Below are positions 38,018 through 63,294 of a stretch of 64,000 bases of DNA, piece after piece (within the stretch, counting starts at the first letter, position 1; each line of letters opens with the position of its first letter). The DNA comes from Dehalococcoidales bacterium (GTDB lineage: Bacteria > Chloroflexota > Dehalococcoidia > Dehalococcoidales > Fen-1064), in assembly GCA_016783135.1 (NCBI GenBank), contig JADHXC010000003.1:11605-75604 (forward strand), read 5' to 3'. The position numbers and the translations under genes are program-made. The notes beneath the pieces were generated by a model, which worked only from the letters and a program-made list of their open reading frames with translations, was not told the origin of the DNA and ran no database searches.

Positions 38018-38821
38018 CTAGCGAGACGAAGTACGATGGGACCGGGCCTCTCTCACACTCCTTAGTTCTGCTAGAACCTGCTGTGCTTCTGACAGAAGGT
38101 CGTGGGCATCTAAATCATCAAGTGTGGCGGCAAGCTGGCCGGAAGTATTCTCCTCTTCTATCTCGGTTGAGAAAAGCTCAAACAGTGAATCCGTGTCTCC
38201 TGACTTACCGGCGGAATCCTTGCCAGAGACATCATCTGATTCCTCGTCTTCCAGGTAGTCCACCGAATCCTTGGACTCGGCCGAGTCTGCGGACTCGGCT
38301 GAGTCTGCGGGCCCGGTTAGCTCTTCGGAGAAGTCGTCAAGCAGGTTGGCCTCGGGGGATTCGAGGGTGGTCTGTTCCGTTTCCGGTGTTCCTTCAGTTT
38401 TGAGTACCGGATTGGAATCTTCTTCCGGCTCTGGAGTGACATTCTTCAACATGGGCACCTCCTTAGCTGCGGTAAGGCTTGGTCCGGCATCGACCGCCGG
38501 CTGCGAAACGGTATCCTCTGACGAGGGTTTTGAGAGGCGCTTTGCCGGTGTGGGCAAAACCTCAACCGGTAAACCCCCATCCGCACCAGACCGGAGCTTG
38601 CCGAGTTTATCCCGCACCTGCCTGGTGAAATCACGCTTTCTTCTCCAGAATGGCTGCCTACCGGTATCATTCGGTTGCGGCTGCTTCGCAGCAGCCAGCA
38701 CTAAACCCTGCTTCGGCGTGGTTTCCCGCATAAGGAGCGGGAAAAGCGTGACAACCATTGCTCCCAGGACAGCAAGACCTGCGAACATGTAAAGGTATAC
38801 ATCAGCACCTAACATTGACAT
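38018..38821 (-). CDS. Single-TM acidic protein ending the archaellum operon
   Basis: SD AAGGAGGT; N-terminal TM helix, low-complexity linker and acidic helical C-terminus. Confidence 0.75.
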   Translation of the reverse strand: MSMLGADVYLYMFAGLAVLGAMVVTLFPLLMRETTPKQGLVLAAAKQPQPNDTGRQPFWRRKRDFTRQVRDKLGKLRSGADGGLPVEVLPTPAKRLSKPSSEDTVSQPAVDAGPSLTAAKEVPMLKNVTPEPEEDSNPVLKTEGTPETEQTTLESPEANLLDDFSEELTGPADSAESADSAESKDSVDYLEDEESDDVSGKDSAGKSGDTDSLFELFSTEIEEENTSGQLAATLDDLDAHDLLSEAQQVLAELRSVREARSHRTSSR

Positions 38822-38860
38822 TACTTATGTACCTCCTTCCTGTATCGTTTCGGAGAACAC

Positions 38861-40381
38861 TCATCCCATTCCGGAAAACATCATGCGGACGACGGGAGGA
38901 CCAAGGATTACGGCGACTCCCGAGGCCCCCAGTGTGAGGGTGAGGTAGAAAAAGAGCTTATAGATATGTCCGCCGCTGGTGGCATAGATGGCGGTGGCGT
39001 TGGCGAAAGCAAGCACCAGGACTATGGCAATCACCATGAAATGGAGCAGGTCCAGTTCTGTGGTAGCGCCGCCGTAGAGACCAAAGGCAGGAATACCGGT
39101 TGCCGCTATGGATTCTACGCCCGCATCTCCCGGCATCACATCCTCGATTAGAGCGGTAAAACTGACCAGAACCTGGTAGACAAAGACCACCAGTATTGAA
39201 AGTACCATGTGCATGACAACCGCCAGCCACAGCATACCGGACTCTATCAGCCGGCGCTTTGCCCGGAGGAGCGTGATTTTCATGGCGAAGCCACTGGCGC
39301 TATTCCCCACAAGCTCCGGCTCGCCGCCCAGAAGGACGCCGTCCAGGAATGTGCGTACGCTCCGGTTCACTTGCTCGGACCCTGTTTCACCAACAAACTG
39401 GTTCCAGCAAAGGCGAGGGTCTATCCCGGCCAGTATTCTGGTATAGAGCAGGTTGACATCTTCCTTCAGGGAACCCAGCGAGTGGAAGTCGAGTCTTGCC
39501 ATAGCCTCGTTTACAGTGGCACCTATGGCCTGGCTGACACCGCCGAGGGAACGGAGAAGGCCAGCGATTTCGTTGTCCCGCTTGTCTATCTTGCCGTCAT
39601 CAATCTTACTTATCAGCCCCAGCGGGAATATGAAGATGGCGACAGCTATCATGACATAACCAAGGTCAATCTTCATTACCAGCATGAGCACTGCCACCAC
39701 AACCACAACGGGTATGGTAAGCCTGACCAGATTTCTCGCCAGGTTCTGCTCCTTGGAGCGCATCGGAAGCGAATGTACCTTGTATTCCCGGGGAGCAGCA
39801 TGGTATATCAACCACACGCCGGCAATGGTCACCACTATGGTCAAAGAGGACAAACCCATGACAAAGACTGTAGTCACGTTACCTATCATCATGGAAACCA
39901 CCGATACGATAGTGACGATGGCTGTGGTCATAATAAGCGCTACATAGGCATCGGTCCACTTCCGTAGTGTCTCCAGTCGGCGCTCATATTGATTGCCGTA
40001 TGCATCCGAAGAGACATCAGCCTCCCTCTGCAGGAACGTAACGATATCTTCTCCGGAGGACAGGGCACCCGACATACGCAGGAGAAACGCCTTTACATCC
40101 GGCTCCTGGGTGTTCTGGCCGACGATTCGGCACGCCTCAGCGTAGTCATGGTTGAACGCTTTAGCAACAAATACCGCCCGTTTGAAGTAACTTGCCGAGG
40201 TGTAGGGCATCTTGGCAGCGTACTCGAACAGCCCGCTCCGCGAGATACCGGATGTGGCTATGGCCGCCATGTAGCTCAAGTGACAGAAGAAGTCCACCTC
40301 CAACAGCTGGTTGTCAACAGACTTACTGGCGTCCTTCTTGCCGCCGTCCTTTCCCTTTGCCCAGAACTTGTACCATACCAT
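38861..40381 (-). CDS. arlJ: Archaellum membrane platform protein ArlJ (FlaJ)
   Basis: LSYMAAIATSG, FLLRMSGALSSGE, L.KWTDAY and ETGS motifs; multi-TM; follows arlI. Confidence 0.88.
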   Translation of the reverse strand: MVWYKFWAKGKDGGKKDASKSVDNQLLEVDFFCHLSYMAAIATSGISRSGLFEYAAKMPYTSASYFKRAVFVAKAFNHDYAEACRIVGQNTQEPDVKAFLLRMSGALSSGEDIVTFLQREADVSSDAYGNQYERRLETLRKWTDAYVALIMTTAIVTIVSVVSMMIGNVTTVFVMGLSSLTIVVTIAGVWLIYHAAPREYKVHSLPMRSKEQNLARNLVRLTIPVVVVVAVLMLVMKIDLGYVMIAVAIFIFPLGLISKIDDGKIDKRDNEIAGLLRSLGGVSQAIGATVNEAMARLDFHSLGSLKEDVNLLYTRILAGIDPRLCWNQFVGETGSEQVNRSVRTFLDGVLLGGEPELVGNSASGFAMKITLLRAKRRLIESGMLWLAVVMHMVLSILVVFVYQVLVSFTALIEDVMPGDAGVESIAATGIPAFGLYGGATTELDLLHFMVIAIVLVLAFANATAIYATSGGHIYKLFFYLTLTLGASGVAVILGPPVVRMMFSGMG

Positions 40382-40383
40382 CG

Positions 40384-42126
40384 TTAGAAGAGCCCCTGTC
40401 GCTGTGCTTTACTGAGAACCTCCAGGATTTCGTAGAAACCGGTAATATGCTTCTCCTTATGTAGTGTCTCCAGTATCTTCGCCCGGCGGTCTACCTCAGC
40501 GTACATGCGCTGTTTCTTGGTAGCCGGGATGCCCATCCTGGGGGCAACCTTGTTTTCCAGGACCATGCTGGTCATCCGGCCGGTGAATTCAAAGACGTCC
40601 GTTTCCTCATTCCAGTGGAATATCTCAACGAAGGTAAATGAATCAAACACGGGGTCATAGGCCACAATCTCATTGATGCTGGTTATACGCCGGCCCGTCT
40701 TACCATTGGGGAGTTTGACCGCGCTGGTAAAGACTATCACGTTCAGGTTGTCAATATAGCTCTTTGGCACCGAGATGGGGTTACCCGTCATACGCTGGAT
40801 AAGCTTCTCCACGGAAGCAGCATGGAATGTGGCCATAACGGCGTGGCCGGTCTGCATTGCCTGGAAAGCCACATTACCTTCCGGGCCGCGAATCTCTCCT
40901 ATGATAATCTCGTTGGGGCGCTGTCTCAGTGCCGCCTTGAGCAGGTCAAACATGTCTACCCCACTACCCTCTCCTACCTTTGTGGTCTGAACCACCTCTC
41001 TTATCCAGTTCTTGTGGGGCACCTGGAGCTCGGGCGTATCCTCAATACTGACCACCTTGGCCATGGGATGAATGAAGGTGGTCACAGCGTTGAGCAGCGT
41101 TGTCTTCCCGGAGGCTGTCTCTCCGGATACGAAGACATTCATCTCGTTACCAATTACAAGTGAAAGATAGGCCAGCATCTGGTAGTTCAGGCTGCTAAAC
41201 TCCACCAGCTCAAAGATAGATATCGGTGTCCCGGCAAACTTACGGATGCTGAAGTTGGAGCCTCGCCTGGACACGTCCCGTCCAAACACTATGTTGATAC
41301 GGGAGCCATCAGGAAGGGTGGCATCTACAATGGGATTCCGGAAGGTAACCGGTTTCTTTATCCGTTCCGAGAGCCACAGCACGAACTGGTCAAGGTCCTC
41401 ATGGGTCTTAAAGTCAACCGAGCTCTTCAGCGCCTTGAAAATTTTGTGCTCAATGAATACCTGTCCTTTACCGGAACAACTTATGTCTTCAATGAGGGGG
41501 TCAGAAGTCAGGGGGTCCAGAGCACCCAGCCCAAGCCTGTCCCGGATGAACATATACCTCAGCCCTGCCTTCTCACGCTCGGTGATTCTGACTCTGGAAA
41601 CCCTGGCACCACCCTTGCGCAGAAACCCGACCTGCCCTTCAATAAAACCCATACCCGAATCGTTACCAAGCGTGGTAACAGTGTCAAGGTATTCATACAA
41701 TTGCTCTTCCAGGTCGCCGTCCGGGTCAAGTCGTGGAAGCCTGTCCCTCAGTTCAAGGAGCTTACTGTCCACTCTGGACATCAAAGAAGTAAGGTCCATG
41801 CCAAAGTCCGGTTCTATAGTAATATAGTCATTCCTGGTATCATCCGGGTTGTGCTGGATATGAATGAATACACCTGTCCGTTGTGTGGGGTAGATGTAGT
41901 TTGGTTCCTTATCATCGCCCAGCTTCCGGGACGGCTCGGCGACATACTTGGGAACCCCCACTTCAGCAACAGGCAGCGTCTGGATGTAGTCCAGGACATA
42001 CGGATACTGCTCGGTAACCTCCTGCAACGGACCCGACAACATCCCGGAAACGCCGGCGCGAGGGGCCGCCGCTTCCCGGCTATCCGGTGTTCCCTCTTCA
42101 GCAGGGGGCAGGACTGTAGTTGTCAT
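40384..42126 (-). CDS. arlI: Archaellum ATPase ArlI (FlaI), copy 2
   Basis: DPLIEDISCSG, GETASGKT, ALRQRPNEIIIGEIRG and AMQTGH motifs. Confidence 0.9.
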   Translation of the reverse strand: MTTTVLPPAEEGTPDSREAAAPRAGVSGMLSGPLQEVTEQYPYVLDYIQTLPVAEVGVPKYVAEPSRKLGDDKEPNYIYPTQRTGVFIHIQHNPDDTRNDYITIEPDFGMDLTSLMSRVDSKLLELRDRLPRLDPDGDLEEQLYEYLDTVTTLGNDSGMGFIEGQVGFLRKGGARVSRVRITEREKAGLRYMFIRDRLGLGALDPLTSDPLIEDISCSGKGQVFIEHKIFKALKSSVDFKTHEDLDQFVLWLSERIKKPVTFRNPIVDATLPDGSRINIVFGRDVSRRGSNFSIRKFAGTPISIFELVEFSSLNYQMLAYLSLVIGNEMNVFVSGETASGKTTLLNAVTTFIHPMAKVVSIEDTPELQVPHKNWIREVVQTTKVGEGSGVDMFDLLKAALRQRPNEIIIGEIRGPEGNVAFQAMQTGHAVMATFHAASVEKLIQRMTGNPISVPKSYIDNLNVIVFTSAVKLPNGKTGRRITSINEIVAYDPVFDSFTFVEIFHWNEETDVFEFTGRMTSMVLENKVAPRMGIPATKKQRMYAEVDRRAKILETLHKEKHITGFYEILEVLSKAQRQGLF

Positions 42127-42155
42127 TGAGCCTATCTCCTCCCGACGCCCTATGG

Positions 42156-43901
42156 CTAGAGCAGACCATCCTGCTGGGCCTGGCCCAGCACCCGCAGGAC
42201 CTCATAGAAATCGGTAATGCCTCGCTCCTTGTGCAGCTTGGCGAATATTCGGGCCCGCTTGTCTATTTCAGCGTATATCCTCCGCTTTGCACGACTTGGT
42301 ATGCCCAGCATGGTAGCAATCTTGTGCTCCATGACGTGGCTATTCATGTAACCAGTGAACTCAAAGGTATCCGTAGTCTCATCCAGCTTGAAGGCCTCGA
42401 CGATATCAAAAGACTGCGTGGGAGGGTCGAAGCCTACTATCTCATCTATCTCGGTGACACGCCGGACTGTGCCACCGTTGGGGAGCTTGATGGAGCGCAT
42501 GAGAATGGCCACGTTAAGGTTATCCATATATGACTTCGGTACCAGAATCGGGGCGGCGGTCATGCGCTGAATCAGCTTCTCCATGGTAGAGGCATGGAAG
42601 GTGGACATAACGGCGTGCCCGGTCTGCATTGCCTGGAAGGCAACGTTGCCCTCCGGCCCACGAATCTCCCCCACGATAATCTCATTGGGGCGCTGCCGCA
42701 GTGCCGCCTTGAGCAGGTCGAATGTGGTCACCGCGCCGGTGCTGTCTTCCAGTTTGTCCGATTGTATCACTTCCCTTATCCAGTTCTCGTGGGGTACCTG
42801 GAGCTCCGGGGTATCCTCGATAGTGACTATCTTGGCTTTGGGAGGAATGAAGGTGGTCAGTGCGTTGAGCATACTTGTCTTCCCGGAAGCCGATTCACCG
42901 GCAATGAAAAGGTTCATGCCATTCGGGATTACCAGTGACAGGTAGCCGAGCATCTGGTAGTTGAGGGTGCCGAAGTCCACCAGATCGAAGATGGATATTG
43001 GTACTGCGCTGAACTTGCGGATGCTGAAGTTGGAGCCCCTCTTGGAGACATCTCGACCGTAGACGATGTTGATACGGGCCCCCACGGGAAGCGTGGCGTC
43101 GGCAATGGGTGACCTGTAGGTTACCGGTTTTCCTATCTGCTCGGCCAACCTCAGGACAAACACATCCAGGTCATCCAGTGAAGAAAATGATATTGGACTC
43201 TTACAACCCTTGAATATCTTGTGCTCGATAAAGAGATGCCCCACACCGGAGCAGCCGATGTCCTCAATGTATGAGTCGGACACAAGAGGCTCGATATCAC
43301 CCAGACCGAGTTTATCCCGGATGAACAGATACTTGATACCCTCGAGCTCACGCTCGGTAAGCCTGACCTTGGTCAGCTTGGGCTCACCCTTGCGAAGCAA
43401 GCCTGTTCGCCTACCAGTACTGGTGGGCTCTTCCGACTGGCTGCCGAGGGCCGTCATCTGTTCAACGTAGTTGGTCAGCTGCTGCTTCTTATCTCCATCG
43501 GCATCGAAGTTGGGAAGCCGGTCACCAAACTGAATGCAACGACTTTCCACCTGGGACATTATATTGCCAAGGTCCATGGTGAGAGTCGGCTCAACGATAA
43601 TGTAGTGATTACGGGTGTCCTTATCGTCAGTCATCACGTGGGCGAAAATACCGTCGCCTAGCGGATAAATGATGTTCGGCTCCTTGATATCTTCCATCTT
43701 TTTGGTAAGCCTGGGGTAGTAACGGGGAACACCCACCTCCTCGATTGGCAGCCAGTGCAGGTATTCGAAGAGATGAGGATACTCTTCCGCAACCTCCTGT
43801 AACGGGGGCGCGAAAGTCTGGAAGAACTCGCAGTTATGAAAGCCTTTCCCGTGGTCGTCTACTTTATTCTCCCTGGTGAAAGGGAGGACTATCTCCGCCA
43901 T
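42156..43901 (-). CDS. arlI: Archaellum ATPase ArlI (FlaI), copy 1
   Basis: YPHLFEY, IIYPLGDGIFAHV, GESASGKT, GEIRG and AMQTGH motifs. Confidence 0.9.
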   Translation of the reverse strand: MAEIVLPFTRENKVDDHGKGFHNCEFFQTFAPPLQEVAEEYPHLFEYLHWLPIEEVGVPRYYPRLTKKMEDIKEPNIIYPLGDGIFAHVMTDDKDTRNHYIIVEPTLTMDLGNIMSQVESRCIQFGDRLPNFDADGDKKQQLTNYVEQMTALGSQSEEPTSTGRRTGLLRKGEPKLTKVRLTERELEGIKYLFIRDKLGLGDIEPLVSDSYIEDIGCSGVGHLFIEHKIFKGCKSPISFSSLDDLDVFVLRLAEQIGKPVTYRSPIADATLPVGARINIVYGRDVSKRGSNFSIRKFSAVPISIFDLVDFGTLNYQMLGYLSLVIPNGMNLFIAGESASGKTSMLNALTTFIPPKAKIVTIEDTPELQVPHENWIREVIQSDKLEDSTGAVTTFDLLKAALRQRPNEIIVGEIRGPEGNVAFQAMQTGHAVMSTFHASTMEKLIQRMTAAPILVPKSYMDNLNVAILMRSIKLPNGGTVRRVTEIDEIVGFDPPTQSFDIVEAFKLDETTDTFEFTGYMNSHVMEHKIATMLGIPSRAKRRIYAEIDKRARIFAKLHKERGITDFYEVLRVLGQAQQDGLL

Positions 43902-43959
43902 GGAATGAATCCCCAGTCCGCCTGCATTGACCAGCAGGCAGTGTTAGACCTTCGCGCTA

Positions 43960-44691
43960 CTAGACCTTTGCTCTGGAGAGAGGCATAATCTTCATACCTA
44001 TCTCCGGTTCTACGTCAAAACTCAGTATGTTTCCCGTGGTCTGGGTGGCCCCCCTGACCTTGGCCACCTCAAGGGTCTTGACCAGCCTGTCACCCACCCT
44101 CTCGATGGCCAGCTTGAAGTGGGCATCGCATACGGAACGGATACGTACCAGTAAGTCCTGCTCGAAGGCATAGGTATGAGCAACGTTGATTATCGTTTTA
44201 CCCCGGTCACAGAGGGTCTTACAACGCTCGAAATAGGCCAGACACTCCCCACCGGTGGCGCCAGCCGCTATCTGAGTGATGGAATCCATGATGGGCAGGT
44301 CAAAATCCTGAAGGTCCTCGATAGTGTTCAGAATGGACTGTAGAGCGACGGCGGCATTGGACCTCACCAGTGAAGGCCTCATGGTATAGATTTTTATCCG
44401 GCCAAGCAGCAGATAGTCCGTTATACTCAGACCGAGGCTGTCCATCTGGGTGACCAGGCTCTTCACCGTGTTCTCCGTGGTGAAGAGGACTACTTTGAAA
44501 TCGTCCTTCAGGGAGCCCCATATCATCTGCTGGCAGAGCACCGATTTCCCCGCATCGGACTGACCCTCCACCAGGGTGAGGGAGCCAATCGGGATACCGC
44601 CACCCAGCTTTTTATCAATCTCACCGTGGCCGGTGGAGATGACGTCCTTCTTTGCTTCTTCCTGTACTTCGTCCAGTTCAACCTCTGGCAT
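43960..44691 (-). CDS. arlH: ArlH (FlaH) KaiC-like ATP-binding protein
   Basis: LGGGIPIGSL, GQSDAGKS, TTENT, IMDS and F.VEP.IG motifs. Confidence 0.9.
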   Translation of the reverse strand: MPEVELDEVQEEAKKDVISTGHGEIDKKLGGGIPIGSLTLVEGQSDAGKSVLCQQMIWGSLKDDFKVVLFTTENTVKSLVTQMDSLGLSITDYLLLGRIKIYTMRPSLVRSNAAVALQSILNTIEDLQDFDLPIMDSITQIAAGATGGECLAYFERCKTLCDRGKTIINVAHTYAFEQDLLVRIRSVCDAHFKLAIERVGDRLVKTLEVAKVRGATQTTGNILSFDVEPEIGMKIMPLSRAKV

Positions 44692-44709
44692 GGCTACCTC
44701 CCGATATGC

Positions 44710-46317: not shown

Positions 46318-46319
46318 CT

Positions 46320-46787
46320 CTAGTCCACACTGAAGGTTGTTTCGTCAAAGATACCGTTAGGGACCACTATCTTGAATATATGAGTGCCCGTGGCGGGGGC
46401 GGACGCCAGGTGAATTGTTACCCTGACGGTAACCGTCGGCTTCCACTGGGTGTAGCTGCCCTCGAACTGGTAGTCCCAGTAGGGGGGGGTATCGCCACCG
46501 TAGGTCACATGGTAGAAGTCGCCCTCGGGCCCGAAGAAGATGTCGCTCCGCTCGACACTATTGATATCTACTGTACCAATGTTCTTTATCCAGGCATCCA
46601 CCCCCGTGGAGTTGTCCGCTACCTGAATGATGTCAATACGACACTCAATACGGTCGCTTACCTTGCTGGTGGCGCTGGTCACCGCCCCGCTGCTTTCAAT
46701 GATTGCGGGGTAGAAACCGTTGAATACCGCGAGAGAAGCTACCACCCCGCCTATCATCAGCAGGATGGTAACAATGACTTTATCCAC
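46320..46787 (-). CDS. arlG: ArlG (FlaG)-like protein
   Basis: N-terminal TM; I.II...WIKNIG, W.P..T and VPNG motifs. Confidence 0.8.
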   Translation of the reverse strand: MDKVIVTILLMIGGVVASLAVFNGFYPAIIESSGAVTSATSKVSDRIECRIDIIQVADNSTGVDAWIKNIGTVDINSVERSDIFFGPEGDFYHVTYGGDTPPYWDYQFEGSYTQWKPTVTVRVTIHLASAPATGTHIFKIVVPNGIFDETTFSVD

Positions 46788-48893: not shown

Positions 48894-49015
48894 TTCCTAC
48901 TCCTTTTTACTACTAATGGATAACCTCTTATGGAATCATGTCCAATAACAGCCTTGACTATCACATCCTTCTGTACCTCCTTCACTAACCTCATCTGCAC
49001 GTGGCACCCTCTGGC

Positions 49016-55272: not shown

Positions 55273-55311
55273 TACATCCGACATCGGGAGAATAATGCAC
55301 GGAAACAAAGA

Positions 55312-56634
55312 ATGACAGTGTTGAAAGATAGGATAAGGAAACTCCTGCGCGTTTCACTTTACCGAAACGCGGGCTATCTGATTCTGACCTCCGGGGTCAA
55401 CAGCCTGGCAGGCTTCGTCTTCTGGGCAGTGGCCGCCCGACTCTATCCGGCGGAGGGCGTAGGACTGGCCGCGGCAGCAATCTCGGCAATGGGTTTGCTG
55501 GCCCTGCTGTCCACCCTGGGTATGGACTACGGCCTGATAAGGTTCCTGCCCGGCTCAGGCGACAAGGCAAAAAATATCCTTAACTCCTGTTTTACTCTCA
55601 GCGGTCTGGTATCAGTAGCCCTGGCCGTCATCTTCCTGGCGGGACTCAAGCTCTGGTCGCCCGCCCTGCTTCGAATCCAGCAGAACCCGGTGTTTTTCAT
55701 CAGCTTTGTCATTTTTGCCCTGGCCGCCGTCTACAGGGTTTTCGCCGAACGGACATTTGTCGCCGGGCGCAGGGCAGGATTTACGCTTACCCAGGGACTG
55801 GTCTTCAGCCTCCTGAGGTTCATCCCCCTGATTATCCTGGCACCTCTCTTCAACGTTTTCGGCATCTTTGCGTCCTGGGGAATCGGACTGGCCCTGGCGG
55901 TAATCGTGAGCATACCCTTCCTCATCCCCCGCGTCCAGCCGGGCTACCGCCCCGCACCGACGATAGACAGGAAGGCAATAGGCAACATGATGCACTTCTC
56001 CTTTGCCAACTACGGTGCTAACATCTTCTGGGCAATTCCCATTCTGTGTCTACCCTTGATGGTGGTGAACCTTCTCGGAGCGGAGGCGAACGCCTACTTC
56101 TATATCGGCTGGGCGCTGGGCTACCTGCTGGTGAACATACCGGTGACCGTCTCCCTCTCCCTGTTCGCGGAGGGCTCACACAACGAGGAACAGCTAGGCC
56201 ACAACATCGGCAGAAGTCTCAGGCTGCTCCTGCTTCTGGTCCCGGTGATAGCCATCGTTTTCCTGGCAGGTGAAAGAGTGCTGGCCCTCTTCGGCAGCAC
56301 TTACGCGGAAAACGCCACCACCCTTCTCTGGGTCCTGGCCGTCTCCGCCATTCCGGCCGGTATCAACCATACCTACTTCACGGTGAAAAGAGTGCAGAAG
56401 AGAATGCGGGACGTCATCGGCCTGAGTGCGTTCATCGCCGTGGTAACGATGGTACTTAGCTACCTGCTTCTGCCCCGGATAGGCATTATCGGAGCAGGGA
56501 TAGGCTGGCTCATTCCCCAGGCCATTGTGGCAGTGGCAGTCACGCCATCACTACTTCGATGGCGCCGCCATTCGGTGGTGGGAACAGAGCAGCAGCACAG
56601 TCCGGCTTACAGGAAGGGGTTAATAGCGAATTGA
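55312..56634 (+). CDS. Oligosaccharide flippase (Wzx/MOP family)
   Basis: GFVFW.VAARLY...VG and LG....LIRFLP motifs; about 12 TM segments. Confidence 0.85.
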   Translation: MTVLKDRIRKLLRVSLYRNAGYLILTSGVNSLAGFVFWAVAARLYPAEGVGLAAAAISAMGLLALLSTLGMDYGLIRFLPGSGDKAKNILNSCFTLSGLVSVALAVIFLAGLKLWSPALLRIQQNPVFFISFVIFALAAVYRVFAERTFVAGRRAGFTLTQGLVFSLLRFIPLIILAPLFNVFGIFASWGIGLALAVIVSIPFLIPRVQPGYRPAPTIDRKAIGNMMHFSFANYGANIFWAIPILCLPLMVVNLLGAEANAYFYIGWALGYLLVNIPVTVSLSLFAEGSHNEEQLGHNIGRSLRLLLLLVPVIAIVFLAGERVLALFGSTYAENATTLLWVLAVSAIPAGINHTYFTVKRVQKRMRDVIGLSAFIAVVTMVLSYLLLPRIGIIGAGIGWLIPQAIVAVAVTPSLLRWRRHSVVGTEQQHSPAYRKGLIAN

Positions 56635-57440
56635 AGAAGACCGAGGTAATGCAGACAGTGGACCGCCGGTCCGTGCTGGAACAGAATATCAGGCTGCACG
56701 AGACCGAGGCGTATTTCTACAACGCCACGCACCCGGAGAACTTCAACGTCTTCGAGCAGAAGCGATTGAAACGTCAGGTCACGAAACTGGCTATGGAAGC
56801 CGGACCATCGCTGCCGGTCCTGGACCTGGCCAGCGGAACGGGAAACGTCTCCGACCACCTGCGGGCAACGGGTCTCCGTCCTGTTGCCTGCGACCTTTCC
56901 CTGGACATGCTGAGAGAGAACCGTGCGGAATACAGGGTCCGGTGCGATATCACGCGGCTGCCCTTCAAAGAAGGATGCTTTGGAGCCGTCACGGCGTACT
57001 CGGTATTCCACCACTTGCCCGACCCCGCCGGGGCTATGCAGGAGATAGACCGCGTAGCCGCGGAGAAGTGCGTACTCTACTTCGACCATGACCGCTTCCT
57101 GCCCCGGGACAGCAGGACGCTGGGTGATTACCCGTTCACGGTATCCGACCTTTTCGGCTGGGTGCCCTGGCTGGTACTGCACCCGAAATACCTGAGGCGT
57201 CTCTTCCAATATGCTCTGTGGGGGAGGAAAGTGCACCTGCGGAATATTCGTGGACTGGATCAGGCGGAATCACACGAACGGGTCGAGCCTGAAAGGCTGG
57301 TGAGAGTCCTGGAAGGCAACGGATTCCGCGTGCAGCTTGGTCGTCACCGGGGCGGGAGCTACCTGAAAGCCTGCCGTGAGAAACGAACCAGACCGAGTCT
57401 GGAAGCTGACAGACCTGCCAGCCTGTCAGCGGTGAGGTAG
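56631..57440 (+). CDS. Class I SAM methyltransferase
   Basis: VLDLASGTG, DLSLDML, LPF and VFHHLPD motifs; TTG start overlaps the flippase stop. Confidence 0.85.
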   Translation: MKKTEVMQTVDRRSVLEQNIRLHETEAYFYNATHPENFNVFEQKRLKRQVTKLAMEAGPSLPVLDLASGTGNVSDHLRATGLRPVACDLSLDMLRENRAEYRVRCDITRLPFKEGCFGAVTAYSVFHHLPDPAGAMQEIDRVAAEKCVLYFDHDRFLPRDSRTLGDYPFTVSDLFGWVPWLVLHPKYLRRLFQYALWGRKVHLRNIRGLDQAESHERVEPERLVRVLEGNGFRVQLGRHRGGSYLKACREKRTRPSLEADRPASLSAVR

Positions 57441-57445
57441 GGGAT

Positions 57446-58672
57446 TTGAAGATAGTCCATCTGGGAACAGGCTTCCTGCCGGTATCATCGAATGCCGACC
57501 GGTCGGTGGAGGGGACAATCTACGAACTGACCCGACATTTGACGCGGCATTTGCCGCCGAATCCGGCGCAGGCAGACAGCACTGTGATAATCATTGACAT
57601 AAGAATGGCCGGGGGAAGCCGAGGCAATACCGGGGCCAGCTTCCACGAAATCACGACGCTACCACTGCACGGGGCCAACCTGTTCAGCTACTTCCTGAAG
57701 GTTATCTGGTTCTCCCTGCGACTGCTCCCTGCACTGCGTCGCCTGATGAGGGAAGCCGGAATTGATATCATCCACGCCCACAGCCAGTTCCCCGCCACGG
57801 CAGTACTGCTTGCCCGAAGGCTGTTCCGCTGGAAAGTACCGGTGGTCTACACGGCACACAACCCCTACCTGCTGGCTCCCCCCAGCCTCGTAAACTGGCT
57901 ACGGCACACGCTGATTGAGGGATGGGTGCTGAGGAGAGTCGACCGGGTGCTGGCCCAGACCGAAGCTGTGGGCAGAGAGCTGGGCCGCAGGTTCCGGATA
58001 TCACCGGAGCGGATAGAACAGGTCTTCGCCGGAATCGACCTGGCTGCGATTGACGATTTCATAGAACATCACCCGCGCCAGGAGAATGGACACCGGACGG
58101 TACTGTATCCGGCCGTAATCAATCCCCGGAAGAACCAGATGGCGGTCGTGCAAAGCATACCTGATGTGGTGAAGGCATACCCCGAGTGCCGGTTCGTCTT
58201 TGCCGGTGCGATTGACGACCGGGCCTATTTCGGCGCTATTCAGGACATGGTTCGCACGCACGGCCTCTCTGATTATGTGGAGTTCACCGGCCAGCTACCC
58301 CTGGAAACACTATACCAGCACTACCGGGATGCCACCGCCCTGATCTTCCCTACCCTGTATGAGAGCCAGGGGAAGGTACTTATCGAGGCGATGGCATTCG
58401 GCCTACCGGTGATTGCTTCCCGCATTGGCCCGATTATGGATGTGGTAAGTCTGGAAAAAGGCAGCGCGATACTCATCGAACCGGACAACCCGGAAGAAAT
58501 CGCAGGCGCGATTACCGGATTACTCCGTAACGAGTGCAAGAGGGCAGGACTATCTGCCAGAGGGAGAAAACTGGCCTCGTCACGATTCCCCTGGAGTCGG
58601 ACCGCCCGGGACACGCTCGCCGTGTACCAGGAGATTATTCAAGACGAGGACATCAAGAAACAGGAGGGTTAG
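57446..58672 (+). CDS. GT4 glycosyltransferase
   Basis: DIIHAH, PRKN and ESQGKVLIEAMAFGLPVI motifs. Confidence 0.93.
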   Translation: MKIVHLGTGFLPVSSNADRSVEGTIYELTRHLTRHLPPNPAQADSTVIIIDIRMAGGSRGNTGASFHEITTLPLHGANLFSYFLKVIWFSLRLLPALRRLMREAGIDIIHAHSQFPATAVLLARRLFRWKVPVVYTAHNPYLLAPPSLVNWLRHTLIEGWVLRRVDRVLAQTEAVGRELGRRFRISPERIEQVFAGIDLAAIDDFIEHHPRQENGHRTVLYPAVINPRKNQMAVVQSIPDVVKAYPECRFVFAGAIDDRAYFGAIQDMVRTHGLSDYVEFTGQLPLETLYQHYRDATALIFPTLYESQGKVLIEAMAFGLPVIASRIGPIMDVVSLEKGSAILIEPDNPEEIAGAITGLLRNECKRAGLSARGRKLASSRFPWSRTARDTLAVYQEIIQDEDIKKQEG

Positions 58673-58674
58673 CC

Positions 58675-59442
58675 ATGGAGTCGATAAAAGAATTGAGAAA
58701 GATTTGCCAGGAGACCAGGGACGACTTACTCTACCAGAGGAACTGGTTCGACCGGAATTTCACGCGCAGGATATCGATGTACCTCACCAAACCCTTCCTG
58801 ATGATGGGCCTGTCCGCTAACCAGGTCACCGCGATTAGCCTTCTCGTCGGTCTGGCGGCGGGAGTGCTGATGGTATTCCCGGACCCGGTGCTCTGGCTCA
58901 TCGGCATACCGCTCTTTTACCTGTACTTTGTCCTCGACTGCGTGGACGGGGAGATAGCCAGGTATCGCAAGACGTCGTCGCTGATAGGCTCATACCTGGA
59001 CGGCGGGCTGGGCATGCTGATGTGGCCCTACGTGCTGGCCTGCATGACCTTCGGAATCAACAATGTTGTGCAGAACAACCTGGTGTTTGCCTTCGGGTTC
59101 CTGGCGGCAGTCGGCTGGCTGCTCTATACCACCTCGGCACTGTTCCCGTACCCCATCCTGCACTCGCGTGGACGCCTGCCGGAAGCAGTTGAGACCTCAG
59201 GCCGGACAACGGAGCCACTGATAATGCGACTGGGGCGGGCCGTCTTTGGCATACGAGGCTTTTTCCCGGTGGTAATCGCAGTAACTATCGTGGACTTACT
59301 TATGACCCCGCTCACCTTCGGCCAGTTCACAGTGAATGCGCGGTTTGCCTACCTGGCGGTATTCGCTCTGGCAACGCTGGCAGGGATTGTCCTCAGGGTA
59401 TCGAGTGTGATGCGCCACGGAGTCAGCCTGCAGAAAGCCTAA
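58675..59442 (+). CDS. CDP-alcohol phosphotransferase family protein
   Basis: SANQVT and DCVDGEIAR...G.YLD motifs. Confidence 0.9.
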   Translation: MESIKELRKICQETRDDLLYQRNWFDRNFTRRISMYLTKPFLMMGLSANQVTAISLLVGLAAGVLMVFPDPVLWLIGIPLFYLYFVLDCVDGEIARYRKTSSLIGSYLDGGLGMLMWPYVLACMTFGINNVVQNNLVFAFGFLAAVGWLLYTTSALFPYPILHSRGRLPEAVETSGRTTEPLIMRLGRAVFGIRGFFPVVIAVTIVDLLMTPLTFGQFTVNARFAYLAVFALATLAGIVLRVSSVMRHGVSLQKA

Positions 59443-59453
59443 CGTGAGCCGCG

Positions 59454-60953
59454 CTACTCAAACTTGCCGGCACTGAGCAGACGGTCTACCTGGAACCTCT
59501 TCAGCAGCCGTACGGCTGCACGCTCAACAGGCCATCTGAAGAACAGGTACCGGCATCGCAGAGAGCCTACCGCCCGGGACATCCTGGTGAGGAAAGGTAC
59601 GCGTAATCTCAACCCGGCCATCCACGAGTAGAATATCAGCCGGGTGAGGTCTTCCATCGGATAGCGTGCCCAGGGAAACAGGTAAAAATCGGCAGGACGA
59701 ATCTCGCTGCCCACGTAAGGACTTACCGCCCACTCCTCCAGCGTCGCCGGTTCCTTCATGCCCTCTTTAAGGCACTGGAAGTACAACTCCGAACCCGGGT
59801 ACGGCCGGTAGATAAATGGACCGAGGACACGGAAGGAGCTATTGATACCGGTGATGTTCGTAATCAGTTCCACGGTCTGCCTGATGTCCTCGGCTTCCTC
59901 GCCGGGAAGGGCAATCATGAAGGAGAAGGTGGCATCTATGTCAACGCTGTCCACCATCCGGGCGGCATGGACGGTATCCTCAACCGTGATGTCCTTCTTG
60001 AGGTAGTCAAGTATCCTCTGCGAGCCTGACTCCACCCCGAAACCGAGTTGCTGGCAGCCGCTCTCCTTTATCCTGGCAAGCAGGTCCGTGTCCATGCGTC
60101 CGGCACGGAAGTAGTCCACCCGTGTGGCGGCAAACCAGCGGAACTTCAGTCCCCTGGCGGTTATCCCATCCACTATCTGCACCAGCCGCTTCCGGTTGGC
60201 AAAGAGGTCTTCATCAAAGAAGGAGATACAGTCCACACCGAGGTTGACGATATCTTCAATATCCTTGAGTACCAGCTCAGCATCCCGGAACCGGTACTTG
60301 TTCTTCAGGACCGGGTTTATGCAGAACGTGCAGCGATGCGGGCAGCCTCTGCTGGTAAAAATCGGCAGACCGACACCGGTGCGCCTGGCAACCTCGGTTA
60401 TGTCGCCAATAGAGCGTATATCTTCTGCCAGGTCCCACTCCAGCGGGGGCAGCCGGTTGATGTCCACAGGCTCCCGGTCTTCGGTAGTCACCACCCCGTT
60501 TTCCGCCTTGAAAGCAATTCCCTTCACCTGTTCCGGGTCGGTCTGCCCACCGATGGCGGCAAGCAGTTCTACGATGGTATCTTCACCTTCACGCTTCACG
60601 GCGAAGTCAGCGTACTCACTGGCGGCAACCTGCTCCAGGTACATCGTGGGGTGTGCGCCTCCCCAGATAATACTGGCGGCGGGGTTGACCTGCCGGACAC
60701 GACGGGATATCTCAATGGCGCTGGTAATCTGGGCTGTCATCACGCTGAGTCCCACCGCAAACACACCCTCCAGTTCCTCTTCCAGTCTCTCCATGAATGC
60801 ACGCTGGTTCGGGTAGTTATTCACGTCCAGGATATTCACCTGATACCCCTGACGGCTGGCGGCCGTACCGACATAGAGCAGGCCGAGGGGGATATTCAGC
60901 CGCATCAGTCTCTCCGGATGCCGCGGATTGACCAGCAACAGTTTCTCAGTCAT
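59454..60953 (-). CDS. B12-binding radical SAM protein
   Basis: PLGLLY, GGAHPT, EGE, SRGCPHRCTFC and GVESGS motifs. Confidence 0.92.
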   Translation of the reverse strand: MTEKLLLVNPRHPERLMRLNIPLGLLYVGTAASRQGYQVNILDVNNYPNQRAFMERLEEELEGVFAVGLSVMTAQITSAIEISRRVRQVNPAASIIWGGAHPTMYLEQVAASEYADFAVKREGEDTIVELLAAIGGQTDPEQVKGIAFKAENGVVTTEDREPVDINRLPPLEWDLAEDIRSIGDITEVARRTGVGLPIFTSRGCPHRCTFCINPVLKNKYRFRDAELVLKDIEDIVNLGVDCISFFDEDLFANRKRLVQIVDGITARGLKFRWFAATRVDYFRAGRMDTDLLARIKESGCQQLGFGVESGSQRILDYLKKDITVEDTVHAARMVDSVDIDATFSFMIALPGEEAEDIRQTVELITNITGINSSFRVLGPFIYRPYPGSELYFQCLKEGMKEPATLEEWAVSPYVGSEIRPADFYLFPWARYPMEDLTRLIFYSWMAGLRLRVPFLTRMSRAVGSLRCRYLFFRWPVERAAVRLLKRFQVDRLLSAGKFE

Positions 60954-63294
60954 CCGTTTCCATCCTCACAATCTGGTCTGCTTCACTGGTATACTCAAAT
61001 ATCTTAACCGTGGGAATCCAGTTCCGCTCCAGGTGCTCGGTAAGTTCCTCTGAGCTGTACACCAGCCGGTAGCGTTCCAGTGCTGCCAGGGGCACGGGAC
61101 TCACCATCGGGTCGGGACTGACTATCCGGTACTTCCCGGCATCCTGACCTGAGAGATAGACCTCGGCCTCTTCGTAGCCGGGGAAAGACCTGGCGCTGGT
61201 GACCCGTTTGTAAGCGGTACCGGCACGGTCAACATCATCCTCAAAGGAGATGACCATTGTGCTGTCCGGGACCACTGCCTTACCGTCGAAGTTATACAGC
61301 CGGCTGGACAGGGAGCGGAAGTACTCGGGGTAGAAGAAGATTATCGGCAGGAGCTTGCCGTCCTCTTCCATGTAGTAGATACCACGAAAATCGTCCGGAC
61401 TTATCCCGGCAAAGGTTGCCATAGCATGGAACTTCCCCGTAGCAGTATCGTAGTCGATGACCACGTATCTGGAATCCAGCTTATCGATTATCTCGTTGGC
61501 CGGGGCTTCCTCCTGGGCAGTGAAGCAGAGAGCGACCGGGTAAGACCAGTTCCCCCCCGGGCCGTGGTTGGGCAAGCGCCGGGCAATACGCGTTATCCAG
61601 TGGCCGTAGTCCCACCAGGCCATTACGCCGTAGGCGGACTCAGGGTAGTCATAGGCCTTGCCGGGCAACGGTGCCTCGTAGAGTTCGTAGTAGAAGTCCG
61701 GGTCACCGAAGGGGTCCGGAGTATTATCCCTGAGCCATGAAAGCGAACTGTACCAGGCATCGGAAGGCGTCAGAAGCCTTGCCTCTTCTATGACATTCGT
61801 GGTCGGGCCGTTCCAGGCGGGTGGCACCCCGGTATTGGGAACGAAAACGACGAATAGCACAACCAGCATTCCTATGCCGGAGGCAATCCGACTTGCTGCC
61901 AGACTCACGGTCCCGGTCGTCTTCCCCGGTCTACCCTCACCGGCAACCCATTTACGGATATCGACCCACCCCAGGAACCACGAGGAGAAATATCCGGCGA
62001 GCAGGGCAACATTGATGGCGTAGTAGTAGGCAAAGCGGCGCTCTCCCAGGGCTGCTGCCAGCATCATCACGCTCCACAATACCAGTATGGTATTATGTGC
62101 CTCCCCACGCCGTACCAGCAGGTAGACCAGCATGCCCAGAGAAATGAAGCTGATAAAGAACCCGGTGGTGAAAACCTCCCAGGCAAGCGAGAAGGAGAAG
62201 CTATCGCCGACGGAAAGCAGGGGCTTCACCTCAGAGATGGTCAGGCCTACCCCCGAGGGCGAGAAAATGCTGAGCCTGCTCAGAACTGATGTCACGAAGG
62301 AAGGGTTGGTAAAATGTAGCACGACGAAGCCAACCACACCGAGCCCGAGTACTGCCAGTGGGTAGTAGGCCGGTCGTATCGACCGGAGGGAGAAGAGACG
62401 GGAAACACCGTTGAGTACCAGCGGGGTAACCAGGGCGATAACGATGGACATCAGCAGCAGGGTGCCGGGAGAAAACGGTAGCAGTATCAGCAGTGCCACC
62501 AGCATGGTGACCACACCCACAATCAACAGGTCGTCTGTGGCACTTCCCCGGAGATGGTCGATGATTGTCTGGACGACTAAGTAGGCAAAGATGATAAAGA
62601 TAAAGAGCGGGCCACCAATCCATGTAAGCAGGTAGACCCCTAGAAAAACACCGGCCAGCAAGCTAAAGGTCAATGGCCGACGGATACCTGCCCAGTTCAG
62701 GTTCCTCAGGTCGGTCAGGGACAGCCGTTTATGTCTGGCCGACTTAAGTGCCATGATGAAGAACATCATGGCCACGGTACTGAACAGGACTTCGGCGGCA
62801 TGATGGTCGGTGGCACCCAGGACAGATCGCCCCATGAACTCGCCGGGAAGTATCGCAATCAGCGCCGCCGCCAGCAAACCGGCCCGCCGGCCAAACAGCT
62901 CTCTGCCGATGAAGTAGACCGGGATAACGGTCAGGGCACCCAGTATTGCGGGAAGATAGGCACCGACCGCCTCGATGGTATGCAGTGTCGGAGAACCGAG
63001 GCCGACCAGCAGGGCACTGCCGGCAATGAGCCAGTCGAAAAAGGGCATGTACGGCCAGGTGCTGCCGTAGGGATAGTAAAGGTAGGGGTCGAAGGTTATG
63101 TACGTGGGGAAGTTGCGCACCAGACTGTCCACCAGCCGCATGTGGTAGTGGGCATCGGCACCGACAAATTTAACCTGGTCGCCTGCAAAGACCCAGTCGT
63201 GCGGGAGATATGCCCGGAGGAAAAAGGCAAGACCGGACAGCAGGGCGACGGCCACGACGGTAACAAGCCCTGGAGAAAACCTAATCTTGCCCAT
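60946..63294 (-). CDS. aglB: Archaeal-type STT3 oligosaccharyltransferase (AglB-like)
   Basis: DAHYHMR, FDPY.YYPYG, DHHAAE, TISE, WLRDNTP, YGVMAWWDYGHWI and DYDTATGK motifs. Confidence 0.9.
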   Translation of the reverse strand: MGKIRFSPGLVTVVAVALLSGLAFFLRAYLPHDWVFAGDQVKFVGADAHYHMRLVDSLVRNFPTYITFDPYLYYPYGSTWPYMPFFDWLIAGSALLVGLGSPTLHTIEAVGAYLPAILGALTVIPVYFIGRELFGRRAGLLAAALIAILPGEFMGRSVLGATDHHAAEVLFSTVAMMFFIMALKSARHKRLSLTDLRNLNWAGIRRPLTFSLLAGVFLGVYLLTWIGGPLFIFIIFAYLVVQTIIDHLRGSATDDLLIVGVVTMLVALLILLPFSPGTLLLMSIVIALVTPLVLNGVSRLFSLRSIRPAYYPLAVLGLGVVGFVVLHFTNPSFVTSVLSRLSIFSPSGVGLTISEVKPLLSVGDSFSFSLAWEVFTTGFFISFISLGMLVYLLVRRGEAHNTILVLWSVMMLAAALGERRFAYYYAINVALLAGYFSSWFLGWVDIRKWVAGEGRPGKTTGTVSLAASRIASGIGMLVVLFVVFVPNTGVPPAWNGPTTNVIEEARLLTPSDAWYSSLSWLRDNTPDPFGDPDFYYELYEAPLPGKAYDYPESAYGVMAWWDYGHWITRIARRLPNHGPGGNWSYPVALCFTAQEEAPANEIIDKLDSRYVVIDYDTATGKFHAMATFAGISPDDFRGIYYMEEDGKLLPIIFFYPEYFRSLSSRLYNFDGKAVVPDSTMVISFEDDVDRAGTAYKRVTSARSFPGYEEAEVYLSGQDAGKYRIVSPDPMVSPVPLAALERYRLVYSSEELTEHLERNWIPTVKIFEYTSEADQIVRMETDD

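Follow-up and report, generated by a model that had tools for sequence, protein, structure and literature searches.

The archaellum, a rotary machine of archaea, is also encoded in bacteria. A recent survey (Sivabalasarma et al., Nat Microbiol 2025, PMC12488501; the statements below rest on part of its text) identified archaellum (arl) loci in 243 of 3,780 Chloroflexota, among them members of the Dehalococcoidales. In these loci the order of the stator genes is G-F, homologues of ArlCDE are found, and the peptidase is encoded outside the arl locus, where it is of the PilD type in lineages other than SAR202. The origin of the bacterial archaellum was placed in the Methanotecta, and the structure of the rotating filament of the swimming bacterium Litorilinea (L.) aerophila was solved. 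Here, we describe a locus of this kind in 64,000 nucleotides of a draft genome of a Dehalococcoidales bacterium (assembly GCA_016783135.1, contig JADHXC010000003.1, positions 11,605 to 75,604; this whole stretch is referred to as the window), in which the arl genes abut a gene cluster for an archaeal-type N-glycosylation pathway that includes the oligosaccharyltransferase AglB. An earlier reading of the same DNA (the original prediction) had placed an AglB pathway next to arl genes amid bacterial regulators and had noted that arl clusters are precedented in Chloroflexota; both statements hold, the regulators being of the two-component type.

In Haloferax (H.) volcanii, the Agl pathway is composed of AglJ, AglG, AglP, AglR, AglS and AglB. 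Bacterial relatives of AglB have been noted before, as "a few bacterial homologues" within the euryarchaeal AglB clade (Lombard 2016). The terms "AglB" and "oligosaccharyl" do not occur in the main text of PMC12488501 (its supplement and source data, which possibly list the present genome, were outside that check), and AglB is likewise absent from two papers of 2026 that deal with type IV filaments of archaea and with chemosensory coupling. Literature searches that paired AglB, STT3, oligosaccharyltransferase or N-glycosylation with Chloroflexi, Chloroflexota or Dehalococcoidia returned nothing relevant (supplements not covered). The machine itself is known, while its pairing with an archaeal N-glycosylation pathway at the level of one family seems unreported; of the proposal that an integrated organization is the new part, it is this pairing, limited to a single family, that stands.

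The archaellum locus and its host

We consider it probable that the window encodes an arl2-type archaellum and a euryarchaeal-style, polyprenyl-monophosphate-dependent N-glycosylation pathway, which have been inherited together, as neighbors, in the family to which the window belongs. By its gene content the locus is a complete archaellum of the G-before-F ("arl2") type in a bacterial chromosome, where the order of the stator genes is read from their positions (Table 1). It has in common with the Chloroflexota loci of PMC12488501, as far as these are described in the part of the text drawn upon here, the gene set, the order G-then-F, a gene in the ArlCDE position, a PilD-type peptidase encoded elsewhere and a nearby response regulator, and because of this fit it is assigned as a further member of the published kind; to that pattern the window adds the abutting AglB cluster, two arlI genes and a propeller insert in ArlF. 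PilN/PilO-LysM genes were not seen, although no search aimed at them was made. The same gene order, i.e., arlB, a gene in the arlD/E position, arlG, arlF, arlH, arlI and arlJ, is found in arl2 clusters of the euryarchaeal Methanotecta, e.g., Archaeoglobus (A.) fulgidus, which also share the G/xTGLE-type archaellin N-terminus and ATPases that pass the FlaI equivalog model. In contrast to the Methanotecta clusters, that of the window resides in a bacterial host, its peptidase is of the PilD type with a bacterial N-terminal domain, arlI is duplicated, and CheW was not found.

The motor ATPases distinguish the locus from a Tad pilus or a type II secretion system (T2SS). Both exceed the cut-off of the archaellum motor model NF058587, while the TadA model reaches just 144-149 bits, and the best match of ArlI1 in the PDB is S. 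acidocaldarius FlaI (4ii7, 4.8e-125), compared to 2e-45 for CpaF; because of these scores the locus groups with archaella rather than with Tad or T2SS, as had been predicted. The two ATPases are 58% identical in a pairwise alignment, with nucleotide-binding motifs intact in both. Orthologous pairs are present in G482, G523, G622 and G057 (genomes are given by label; G000 is the genome of the window, G523 belongs to the same genus and G482 to another genus), and among 58 fetched ArlJ loci 19 hold two full-length ArlI and nine hold one, while in 30 none lies within the fetched stretch. Both archaellins, ArlB1 and ArlB2, score far above the Pfam Arch_flagellin (PF01917) cut-off of 29.5 bits and carry a class III signal peptide, with the N-terminus RG-MTGLETAI(V/I)LIAFV and predicted cleavage between RG and MTGLE. 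No A24 prepilin peptidase is encoded in the window, as originally stated; a search of the genome located a PilD-type peptidase (A24_N_bact plus Peptidase_A24) on contigs C26 and C35. The two PilD genes (L002 and L003, respectively) are 93% identical and a glycerate kinase gene follows each of them, for which reason the bin holds two strain variants of this locus, in agreement with its estimated contamination (see below).

All genes of the two clusters listed in the original prediction are open frames at the given places, and most are recognized by curated models. Some assignments are weaker. For the gene in the ArlC/D/E position, orf273, Pfam and NCBIfam gave no match at thresholds up to E<=1, and its profile matched nothing in the PDB, i.e., its identification as ArlD/E is not supported by either search; among 181 homologues, four of the 120 listed carry the name "archaellum component FlaD/FlaE", given by one source. 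By its position, which is kept in G482, G523, G622 and G057, orf273 is a candidate ArlC/D/E component. ArlG has a single match in NCBIfam, to the ArlG model NF052591 (25.4 bits; cut-off 110), and the putative ArlF is assigned from its position and from sub-threshold Pfam matches to FlaF_Ig-like (17.8 bits) and Arch_flagellin (17.1 bits). In the original gene list it was thus the arlD/E-like gene that lacked a family match and ArlF that was placed by position and sub-threshold scores, while most assignments stood. ArlJ, for which the best family is that of ArlJ/FlaJ, also exceeds the Pfam T2SSF cut-off (33.4 vs 25.2 bits). Behind arlJ, orf267 matched no Pfam or NCBIfam family; copies that are 82% identical follow arlJ in G523 and G542, and two terminator-like hairpins are located 3' of orf267, at 37966-37936 on the minus strand.

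The source genome is a 2.28-Mb draft of 87 contigs (95.5% complete, 7.4% contamination). Its 16S rRNA, found on another contig, is bacterial, the contig and the genome have similar GC (guanine plus cytosine) contents of 0.55 and 0.56, respectively, and the window itself contains genes for a protein with a sigma-54 DNA-binding domain, for an activator of the NtrC type, for response regulators of the LuxR and OmpR types and for many histidine kinases. The nearest relatives of the AglB are in records titled Dehalococcoidales, Dehalococcoidaceae or Dehalococcoidia. The host is most likely a Dehalococcoidia bacterium of the order Dehalococcoidales.

The fragmented draft and its contamination, the strain mixture revealed by the PilD loci, the absence of a single Logan contig across the whole stretch and the components that score under curated cut-offs would fit a cluster that is no longer active or that arose as an artefact of assembly, i.e., a decaying transferred locus or a mis-joined archaeal fragment. 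This explanation is highly improbable and already largely refuted. On a single 26.6-kb contig of G482 the genes AglB-B12-radical SAM-CDP-alcohol transferase-GT4-methyltransferase-orf592-GT2-GT2 (GT, glycosyltransferase family) abut arlB-arlB-orf273-arlG-arlF-arlH-arlI-arlI-arlJ, and G523 repeats the order RR135-orf192-orf267-arlJ...arlB-RR142-DUF1616-GT2-GT2 (RR, response regulator), i.e., both junctions with bacterial genes; these junctions, RR135-orf192-orf267-arlJ and arlB-RR142-DUF1616-GT2, recur in G542. Because the synteny is repeated in G523 and G482, a chimeric contig is excluded, and the claim of a bacterial, non-chimeric contig is upheld by these related genomes and by the bacterial regulators. 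Homologues of ArlJ and AglB are furthermore found on megabase-scale or single-contig Dehalococcoidia chromosomes (e.g., G057, G533, G437, G524 and L103), and the bacterial AglBs form a clade of their own (see below). All frames are open, and the ratio of nonsynonymous to synonymous substitution rates (dN/dS) between G000 and its 92-96% identical congener G523 is 0.16-0.59 in 14 of 14 genes tested, which shows that the genes are kept by purifying selection.

At the level of reads, continuity was borne out in part: Logan contigs from runs X1 and X4, either of which is possibly the source of the assembly, tile 44-64 kb without differences, while no piece spans the whole stretch and X1 leaves 58.0-60.0 kb uncovered. 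An independent estuary run (X7) contains exact short pieces from the arl and agl halves alike. In X1 and X4, contigs of low depth (about 4, compared to 18-44 for the main form) join position 63025 in aglB to position 50194 in DUF1616, with the same 40 other letters in between; these may stem from a minor strain in which the genes are arranged differently or from a similar sequence of another organism.

The glycosylation cluster

The AglB of the window passes the archaeal model TIGR04154, which is above its cut-off in two of 14 control genomes, and contains the Pfam domains STT3 (PF02516, 101.3 bits) and AglB_core-like (PF22627, 73.2 bits). It matches A. fulgidus AglB (3waj) at 4e-70 over 614 residues, where the segments G-x-D, DHH, TI(S/A)EV (TIxE) and WWDYGHWI are in register, and the eukaryotic STT3A at 1.6e-10; no PglB chain was matched at E<=0.01 in a sequence search of the PDB. 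The WWDYG motif and the acidic and TIxE loops contain the catalytic-site residues, as known from work on A. fulgidus AglB. The protein looks intact and archaeal, and oligosaccharyl transfer is predicted. The setting resembles that of the Campylobacter-type PglB in that an STT3-family oligosaccharyltransferase is encoded beside glycan-assembly genes in a bacterial cell; unlike PglB, the protein of the window matches archaeal AglB and passes TIGR04154, and its relatives are Methanosarcinales-type AglBs.

Compared to the Agl pathway of H. volcanii, the cluster has the same kinds of components, i.e., AglJ/AglD- and AglG-like GT2 enzymes, S-adenosylmethionine (SAM)-dependent methyltransferases, a flippase of the MOP type, a GT-C-like enzyme and a TIGR04154-type AglB. 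The accessory enzymes all lie below the haloarchaeal equivalog cut-offs: the first GT2 reaches 107.9 bits with NF041391 and 100 bits with the AglJ model TIGR04182, both under the respective cut-offs. The CDP-alcohol transferase reaches 45.9 bits with the archaetidylinositol-phosphate synthase model, also under its cut-off. The cluster also differs from the haloarchaeal pathway in that it contains the B12-binding radical SAM enzyme, the CDP-alcohol transferase and DUF1616, while no match to archaeosortase A (TIGR04125), with which the name of the model TIGR04154 associates this AglB subfamily, was obtained in the 95.5%-complete genome (the control matches were in H. volcanii and Methanosarcina (M.) acetivorans). 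A UppS-type cis-prenyltransferase is encoded in the genome. In the Agl pathway of euryarchaea, glycans are assembled on a monophosphate lipid. The combination of AglJ- and AglG-like GT2s, methyltransferases and a flippase, together with the lack of a match to any polyprenyl-phosphate phosphoglycosyl transferase family in scans of the cluster proteins, suggests assembly on polyprenyl monophosphate in the euryarchaeal style.

The polytopic protein encoded by orf592 matched no Pfam or NCBIfam family. The best PDB matches of its predicted fold are all GT-C enzymes (AglB, ArnT, STT3, PglB and AftA) at template-modeling (TM) scores of 0.36-0.46, with a best E-value of 4.7e-4, the sole match at E<=0.001; this modeled fold suggests a possible role as another lipid-sugar-dependent transferase in the pathway. 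Homologues of the flippase follow AglB in 14 of 80 loci, at 34-55% identity in the Dehalococcoidia loci and 41% in L094, and a copy of the radical SAM enzyme (70% identical) adjoins AglB in G482. In a control set of 14 genomes, DUF1616 was matched solely in H. volcanii and M. acetivorans, while half of the genomes of the window's family (12 of 24) encode it; possibly it is a further gene of archaeal type that resides in the lineage. The real start of the second methyltransferase is probably downstream of the listed one.

Table 1. Features of the archaellum locus, the adjoining glycosylation cluster and the control region (positions refer to the window; AF2, AlphaFold2; pLDDT, predicted local distance difference test; pTM, predicted TM score; SD, Shine-Dalgarno)
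Feature	Position	Strand	Assignment and evidence
arl block	38018-48893	-	arlB-arlB-orf273-arlG-arlF-arlH-arlI-arlI-arlJ-orf267, ten tightly packed frames
arlB1	48318..48893	-	archaellin, 191 aa; Pfam Arch_flagellin (PF01917) 70.7 bits, TIGR02537 N-terminal domain 21.2 bits
arlB2	47720..48295	-	archaellin, 191 aa; Pfam Arch_flagellin 76.9 bits
orf273	46780..47601	-	ArlC/D/E position; coiled-coil N-terminus, low-complexity linker, conserved C-terminal domain
arlG	46320..46787	-	putative stator component, 155 aa; Arch_flagellin 31.3 bits, above cut-off 29.5
arlF	44710..46317	-	putative ArlF, 535 aa; N-terminal membrane helix, propeller insert, C-terminal FlaF-type Ig domain
arlH	43960..44691	-	KaiC-like regulator of ArlI; NF004723 286.2 bits (cut-off 194), Pfam KaiC 73.8 bits
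arlI1	42156..43901	-	archaellum motor ATPase; NF058587 "archaellum motor FlaI" 607.9 bits (cut-off 550)
arlI2	40384..42126	-	second motor ATPase; NF058587 629.9 bits (cut-off 550)
arlJ	38861..40381	-	membrane platform protein; best family NF004703 ArlJ/FlaJ 418.3 bits, below equivalog cut-off 570
orf267	38018..38821	-	no family match; one membrane helix and acidic low-complexity tail; closes arl transcription unit in genus
Glycosylation unit	49856-63294	both	DUF1616, two GT2, two methyltransferases, orf592, flippase, GT4, CDP-alcohol transferase, B12-radical SAM, AglB
DUF1616	49856..50710	+	membrane protein, opens divergent glycosylation unit; PF07760 228.9 bits
GT2, AglJ/AglD-like	50900..51655	+	polyprenyl-phosphate hexose transferase type; Glycos_transf_2 120.1 bits
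GT2, AglG-like	51676..52674	+	Pfam GT2 68.7 bits; NF041394 GtaseAglG_Halo 229.9 bits, E 4e-68, under cut-off 440
Methyltransferase	52695..53456	+	SAM-dependent; Methyltransf_23/11 67.5/66.5 bits
orf592	53494..55272	+	polytopic membrane protein; GT-C-like predicted fold, AF2 pLDDT 80.4, pTM 0.83
Flippase	55312..56634	+	Polysacc_synt (MOP) type; PF01943 31.7 bits, cut-off 28.2
Second methyltransferase	56559..57440	+	SAM-dependent; Methyltransf_11 60.3 bits
GT4	57446..58672	+	glycosyltransferase; Glycos_transf_1 102.7 bits, Glyco_transf_4 84.2 bits
CDP-alcohol transferase	58534..59442	+	CDP-alcohol phosphatidyltransferase family; PF01066 31.4 bits, cut-off 22
B12-radical SAM	59454..60953	-	B12-binding radical SAM enzyme; Radical_SAM 85.6 bits, B12-binding 66.3 bits; 8-nt overlap with aglB stop
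aglB	60946..63294	-	archaeal-type oligosaccharyltransferase, 782 aa; TIGR04154 625.1 bits (cut-off 450)
RR142	49016..49444	-	receiver-only response regulator, directly upstream of arlB1; Response_reg 44 bits
Start-stop element	48961..48980	-	SD-ATG-stop in arlB1 leader; GGAGGT, 8-nt spacer, ATG then TGA; 87 nt upstream of arlB1

Distribution, descent and functional relation of the two systems

In a sample of 401 genomes from the phylum (queries, the window proteins; E<=1e-10), AglB was matched in 13 and ArlJ in seven, all of which belong to the class of the window. At the level of the order (301 genomes), 109 genomes encode AglB, 66 encode ArlJ and 45 encode both, which corresponds to an odds ratio of 5.7 for co-occurrence, in a sample where kin are not independent; among the high-quality genomes of the order, AglB is found in 49 of 125. 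The association is tighter in the window's own family (24 genomes), where AglB is present in six of the 12 genomes with ArlJ and in none of the 12 without. In G000, G482 and G622 a distance of 16-21 kb on the same contig separates AglB from arlJ, and agl-type genes reside beside arl genes in four of the 58 fetched ArlJ loci (G000, G482, G523 and G622), all from this family. In two genera the glycosylation and arl units are seen to diverge from a shared intergenic region. The claim of a general cross-domain motility island is not sustained by these data, because outside the 45 genomes with both systems 64 have AglB alone and 21 ArlJ alone, and adjacency is confined to the four loci. Across the order, neither system requires the other.

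A scan with one genome per species yielded 518 relatives of AglB. Among the best 80 of these, Dehalococcoidia metagenome-assembled genomes come first, at 36-52% identity, followed by Methanosarcinales, Methanocellales, Methanophagales, Methanothrix and Syntrophoarchaeum at 34-42%. A tree of 91 sequences (FastTree, unrooted, Shimodaira-Hasegawa-like supports) was calculated from the window and 94 further loci, of which four were excluded because they lacked an uninterrupted frame of at least 550 residues with a WWDYG-type motif. Here, all Dehalococcoidia sequences reside on one side of a branch with support 100 (43 rows), apart from the Methanosarcinales-type AglBs, and the four AglBs of the window's family cluster together (support 91). 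The pattern fits a single, old acquisition of AglB in the Dehalococcoidales, followed by vertical descent. The direction of transfer, from archaea to bacteria, is inferred from the distribution.

The Dehalococcoidia side of the tree also includes three short contigs binned to other phyla. In total, four AglBs (L094, L112, L146 and L101) are found on 3-4-kb contigs binned as Nitrospirota, Verrucomicrobiota, Thermodesulfobacteriota or "bacterium"; L094, L112 and L101 are inside the Dehalococcoidia clade and L146 is beside a Methanosarcinales sequence, and these placements are probably binning errors. Atlas neighbors hint that AglB_core proteins may also occur in Acidobacteriota.

Proximity of aglB and arl genes is also seen in archaea, where arl genes are near AglB in seven of 29 loci having at least 8 kb of flank (L134, L138, L147, L149, L150, L152 and L154, from Methanolobus, Methanococcoides, Syntrophoarchaeum and Methanosarcinaceae). 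In these seven loci arlJ-arlI(-arlH) are located 1-6 kb downstream of AglB in convergent orientation; in the Methanolobus locus L154 they are separated from it by three coenzyme-B-type biosynthesis genes, with the stator genes in the order F-G, and in the Syntrophoarchaeum locus L149 arlI and arlJ alone were recognized. A joint transfer of aglB and arl was considered and rejected, since the archaeal arrangement differs; the archaeal loci set a precedent for adjacency and are no evidence of a single transfer.

If the filament were a substrate of AglB, sequons would be expected in the archaellins, and ArlB1 and ArlB2 each have two, at N80 (NQS) and N118 (NVT). The two paralogues of G482 retain both positions, and G523 retains three of the four. 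Counted over the globular part, the sequon density is 1.49 per 100 residues in 35 genomes with AglB and 0.78 in 13 without (Mann-Whitney p = 0.004; archaellin frames outside 150-300 residues or lacking a recognizable signal-peptide motif were dropped, including the only one of G340). The lowest densities, 0 to 0.68 per 100 residues, are those of genomes with ArlJ and no STT3 (G561, G551, G533 and G057), with the exception of G123 (1.44). The evidence, which is weak and far from proof, is consistent with N-glycosylation of the filament, and the originally proposed coupling of glycosylation to the filament is retained in this limited form, for which the pair of conserved sequons and their slight excess speak.

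A number of observations weigh against the preferred reading of a co-inherited pair. After correction for composition, the ratio of observed to expected sequons is 1.19 in genomes with AglB (159 vs 133.9) and 0.89 in those without (36 vs 40.3), i.e., most of the sequon signal reflects composition and the excess is small; the genome G430 encodes AglB and lacks both conserved sequons. Two sequons per 143 residues are few by archaeal standards. The tree lacks a root and was calculated with FastTree only, and the assignments of ArlF, ArlG, ArlJ and orf273 lie under curated cut-offs. A search for RNA runs that contain the stretch listed none. Five ArlJ-positive genomes (93-99% complete, two of them single-contig) have no match to any STT3 family, which shows that the archaellum does not depend on AglB, and the above 64 AglB-positive genomes without an ArlJ match and 21 ArlJ-positive genomes without AglB point in the same direction. 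Finally, the only bacterial archaellum with a solved structure so far, that of L. aerophila, displays O-linked rather than N-linked densities, and bacterial archaella are stated to be O-glycosylated, probably via repurposed bacterial machinery (PMC12488501, as far as covered by the text drawn upon).

Much of this evidence would also be accounted for if the two systems were independent neighbors, where AglB decorates the S-layer or other parts of the envelope and the adjacency is a by-product of the clustering of surface genes. Relatives in the genus Dehalococcoides reportedly lack peptidoglycan and have a protein surface layer. We regard this explanation as a possibility to be taken seriously, even if on balance a rather doubtful one. 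In addition to the separate occurrences (64 of 109 AglB-positive and 21 of 66 ArlJ-positive genomes), the small corrected sequon excess and the O-linked densities, it is favored by the 14 of 80 loci in which AglB has its own flippase (in seven also a GT2) and in which no arl gene was matched; 13 of these are titled Dehalococcoidia, Dehalococcoidales or Chloroflexota, and the remaining one, L094, is the 4-kb contig titled Nitrospirota. Independence does not readily explain that AglB is confined to ArlJ-positive genomes in the window's family, that in two genera the clusters diverge from one intergenic region, that the archaellins of the linked clade retain two sequon positions, and that the STT3-free genomes, G123 excepted, have the lowest sequon densities.

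A further question is whether the filament rotates. ArlH and ArlF/G are not known outside archaella. Since the locus harbors ArlH and genes in the ArlF/G positions, and since both ATPases are above the FlaI equivalog cut-off, a non-rotating, type IV pilus-like fiber for adhesion, conduction or DNA uptake in place of a swimming organelle is improbable, even considering that CheW was not found, that the stator proteins are weakly recognized and that no filaments were seen on the SAR202 strains with arl genes that were first brought into culture (quoted in PMC12488501); the homologous Chloroflexota locus of L. aerophila, described in the same text, yields a rotating filament with which the cells swim.

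According to the families to which the proteins belong, a co-inherited archaellum and AglB pathway would function as follows. ArlB1 and ArlB2 would be cleaved by the bacterial PilD-type peptidase encoded elsewhere in the genome, ArlI and ArlJ together with ArlH would assemble and rotate the archaellins, and ArlF and ArlG would form the stator. AglB would N-glycosylate exported surface proteins, probably including the archaellins at N80 and N118, while the targets are likely to be mainly other envelope proteins. The locus would be governed by two-component receivers rather than by chemotaxis.

Control region, ArlF insert and implications

Receiver-only regulators are found on both flanks of the locus. 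A 94%-identical copy of RR142 resides at the same place in G523, and in G057 a 34%-identical receiver precedes arlB. No CheW, the only chemotaxis gene searched for, was found in the 95.5%-complete genome. As regards the proposed bacterial control circuit, the receiver proteins are indeed adjacent, while nothing beyond adjacency was found and a response regulator within the arl locus of L. aerophila is already in print (PMC12488501, in the text drawn upon). The claim of SD sites or tight coupling throughout holds in part, with SD-like motifs before 16 of 24 genes and several of the remaining genes tightly coupled.

Control of arlB by sigma-54 was considered and rejected, as a search for TGGCAC-N5-TTGC with at most two mismatches gave 61 matches compared to 57.8 expected, with none in the arlB1 leader. 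Between 37 and 51 kb, scans for sigma-70 promoters (10 vs 9.7 in shuffles) and terminators (14 vs 9.7) were not above background, and Rfam and tRNA scans of the window yielded nothing. Elsewhere in the window, at 3115-12135, a region of lower GC content (0.46-0.49) encodes a sigma-54 DNA-binding protein, an NtrC-type activator, a receiver-tetratricopeptide-repeat (TPR) protein and a NuoF-like flavoprotein. Two fusion proteins are also encoded there, one that combines an [FeFe]-hydrogenase-like domain with a histidine kinase (4230-6179) and one that combines a receiver with 2Fe-2S/4Fe-4S domains (11134-12135). The sequence TGGCAAGATAATTGC at 7603-7617 resembles a sigma-54 site and precedes the gene at 7643 by 26 nt.

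The arlB1 leader contains a short element in which an SD sequence is followed by a start codon and directly by a stop codon. Within the order, 14 of 48 loci show the pattern GGAGG-N4-13-ATG-stop ahead of their first archaellin gene, with TGA, TAG and TAA all used, compared to 0.055 expected from 26 matches in 4.57 Mb (own genome, both strands). The flanks of the element are not conserved.

The insert in ArlF comprises about 370 residues (approximately residues 56-425; window 45043-46152, minus strand) with seven repeats of about 52 residues each, predicted to form a seven-bladed beta-propeller (AF2 pLDDT about 90 over residues 60-420). Its best fold matches in the PDB are the sugar-binding lectins PLL/PHL of Photorhabdus (TM score by target 0.65-0.80, E about 3e-10). 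The congener G523 and full-length homologues from databases (527-557 residues) also contain the insert, whereas in the ArlF of G482, G622 and G057, which lack it, only residues 1-55 and 424-534, approximately, are matched. The repeat module is found in more than 950 database proteins. The few of these with a source name are from Chloroflexota/Chloroflexi or Dehalococcoidia, and some of the listed proteins carry pilin-type N-termini.

These features allow a more far-reaching model, in which the Dehalococcoidales acquired an entire surface toolkit from Methanotecta-like archaea that functions, in the window's family, as a co-adapted module, i.e., AglB glycosylates the archaellins and the envelope, the lectin-like propeller of ArlF grips the coat and the start-stop element gates synthesis. 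We regard this model as speculative and unlikely to apply in full. If it were true, the locus would specify the first AglB-dependent N-glycosylated motility organelle in Bacteria, which would overturn the published inference of bacterial O-glycosylation for bacterial archaella, and the propeller would anchor the motor to a glycan coat in a wall-less bacterium.

Independent of that model, the pairing bears on AglB-dependent N-glycosylation in Bacteria beyond the PglB lineages, on N-glycosylation of archaellins and on glycan-based anchoring of motors, and it offers a source of AglB enzymes from a bacterial host for glycoengineering. The bacterial archaellum is a fresh (2025) textbook exception and raises the question by what means a rotary machine of foreign origin is accommodated in the envelope of a bacterium. 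In the Dehalococcoidales, part of the answer may be a second imported system, the AglB pathway, which is found in about a third of the sampled species, and the pairing of the two systems suggests that these bacteria may sugar-coat their surface in the archaeal manner.

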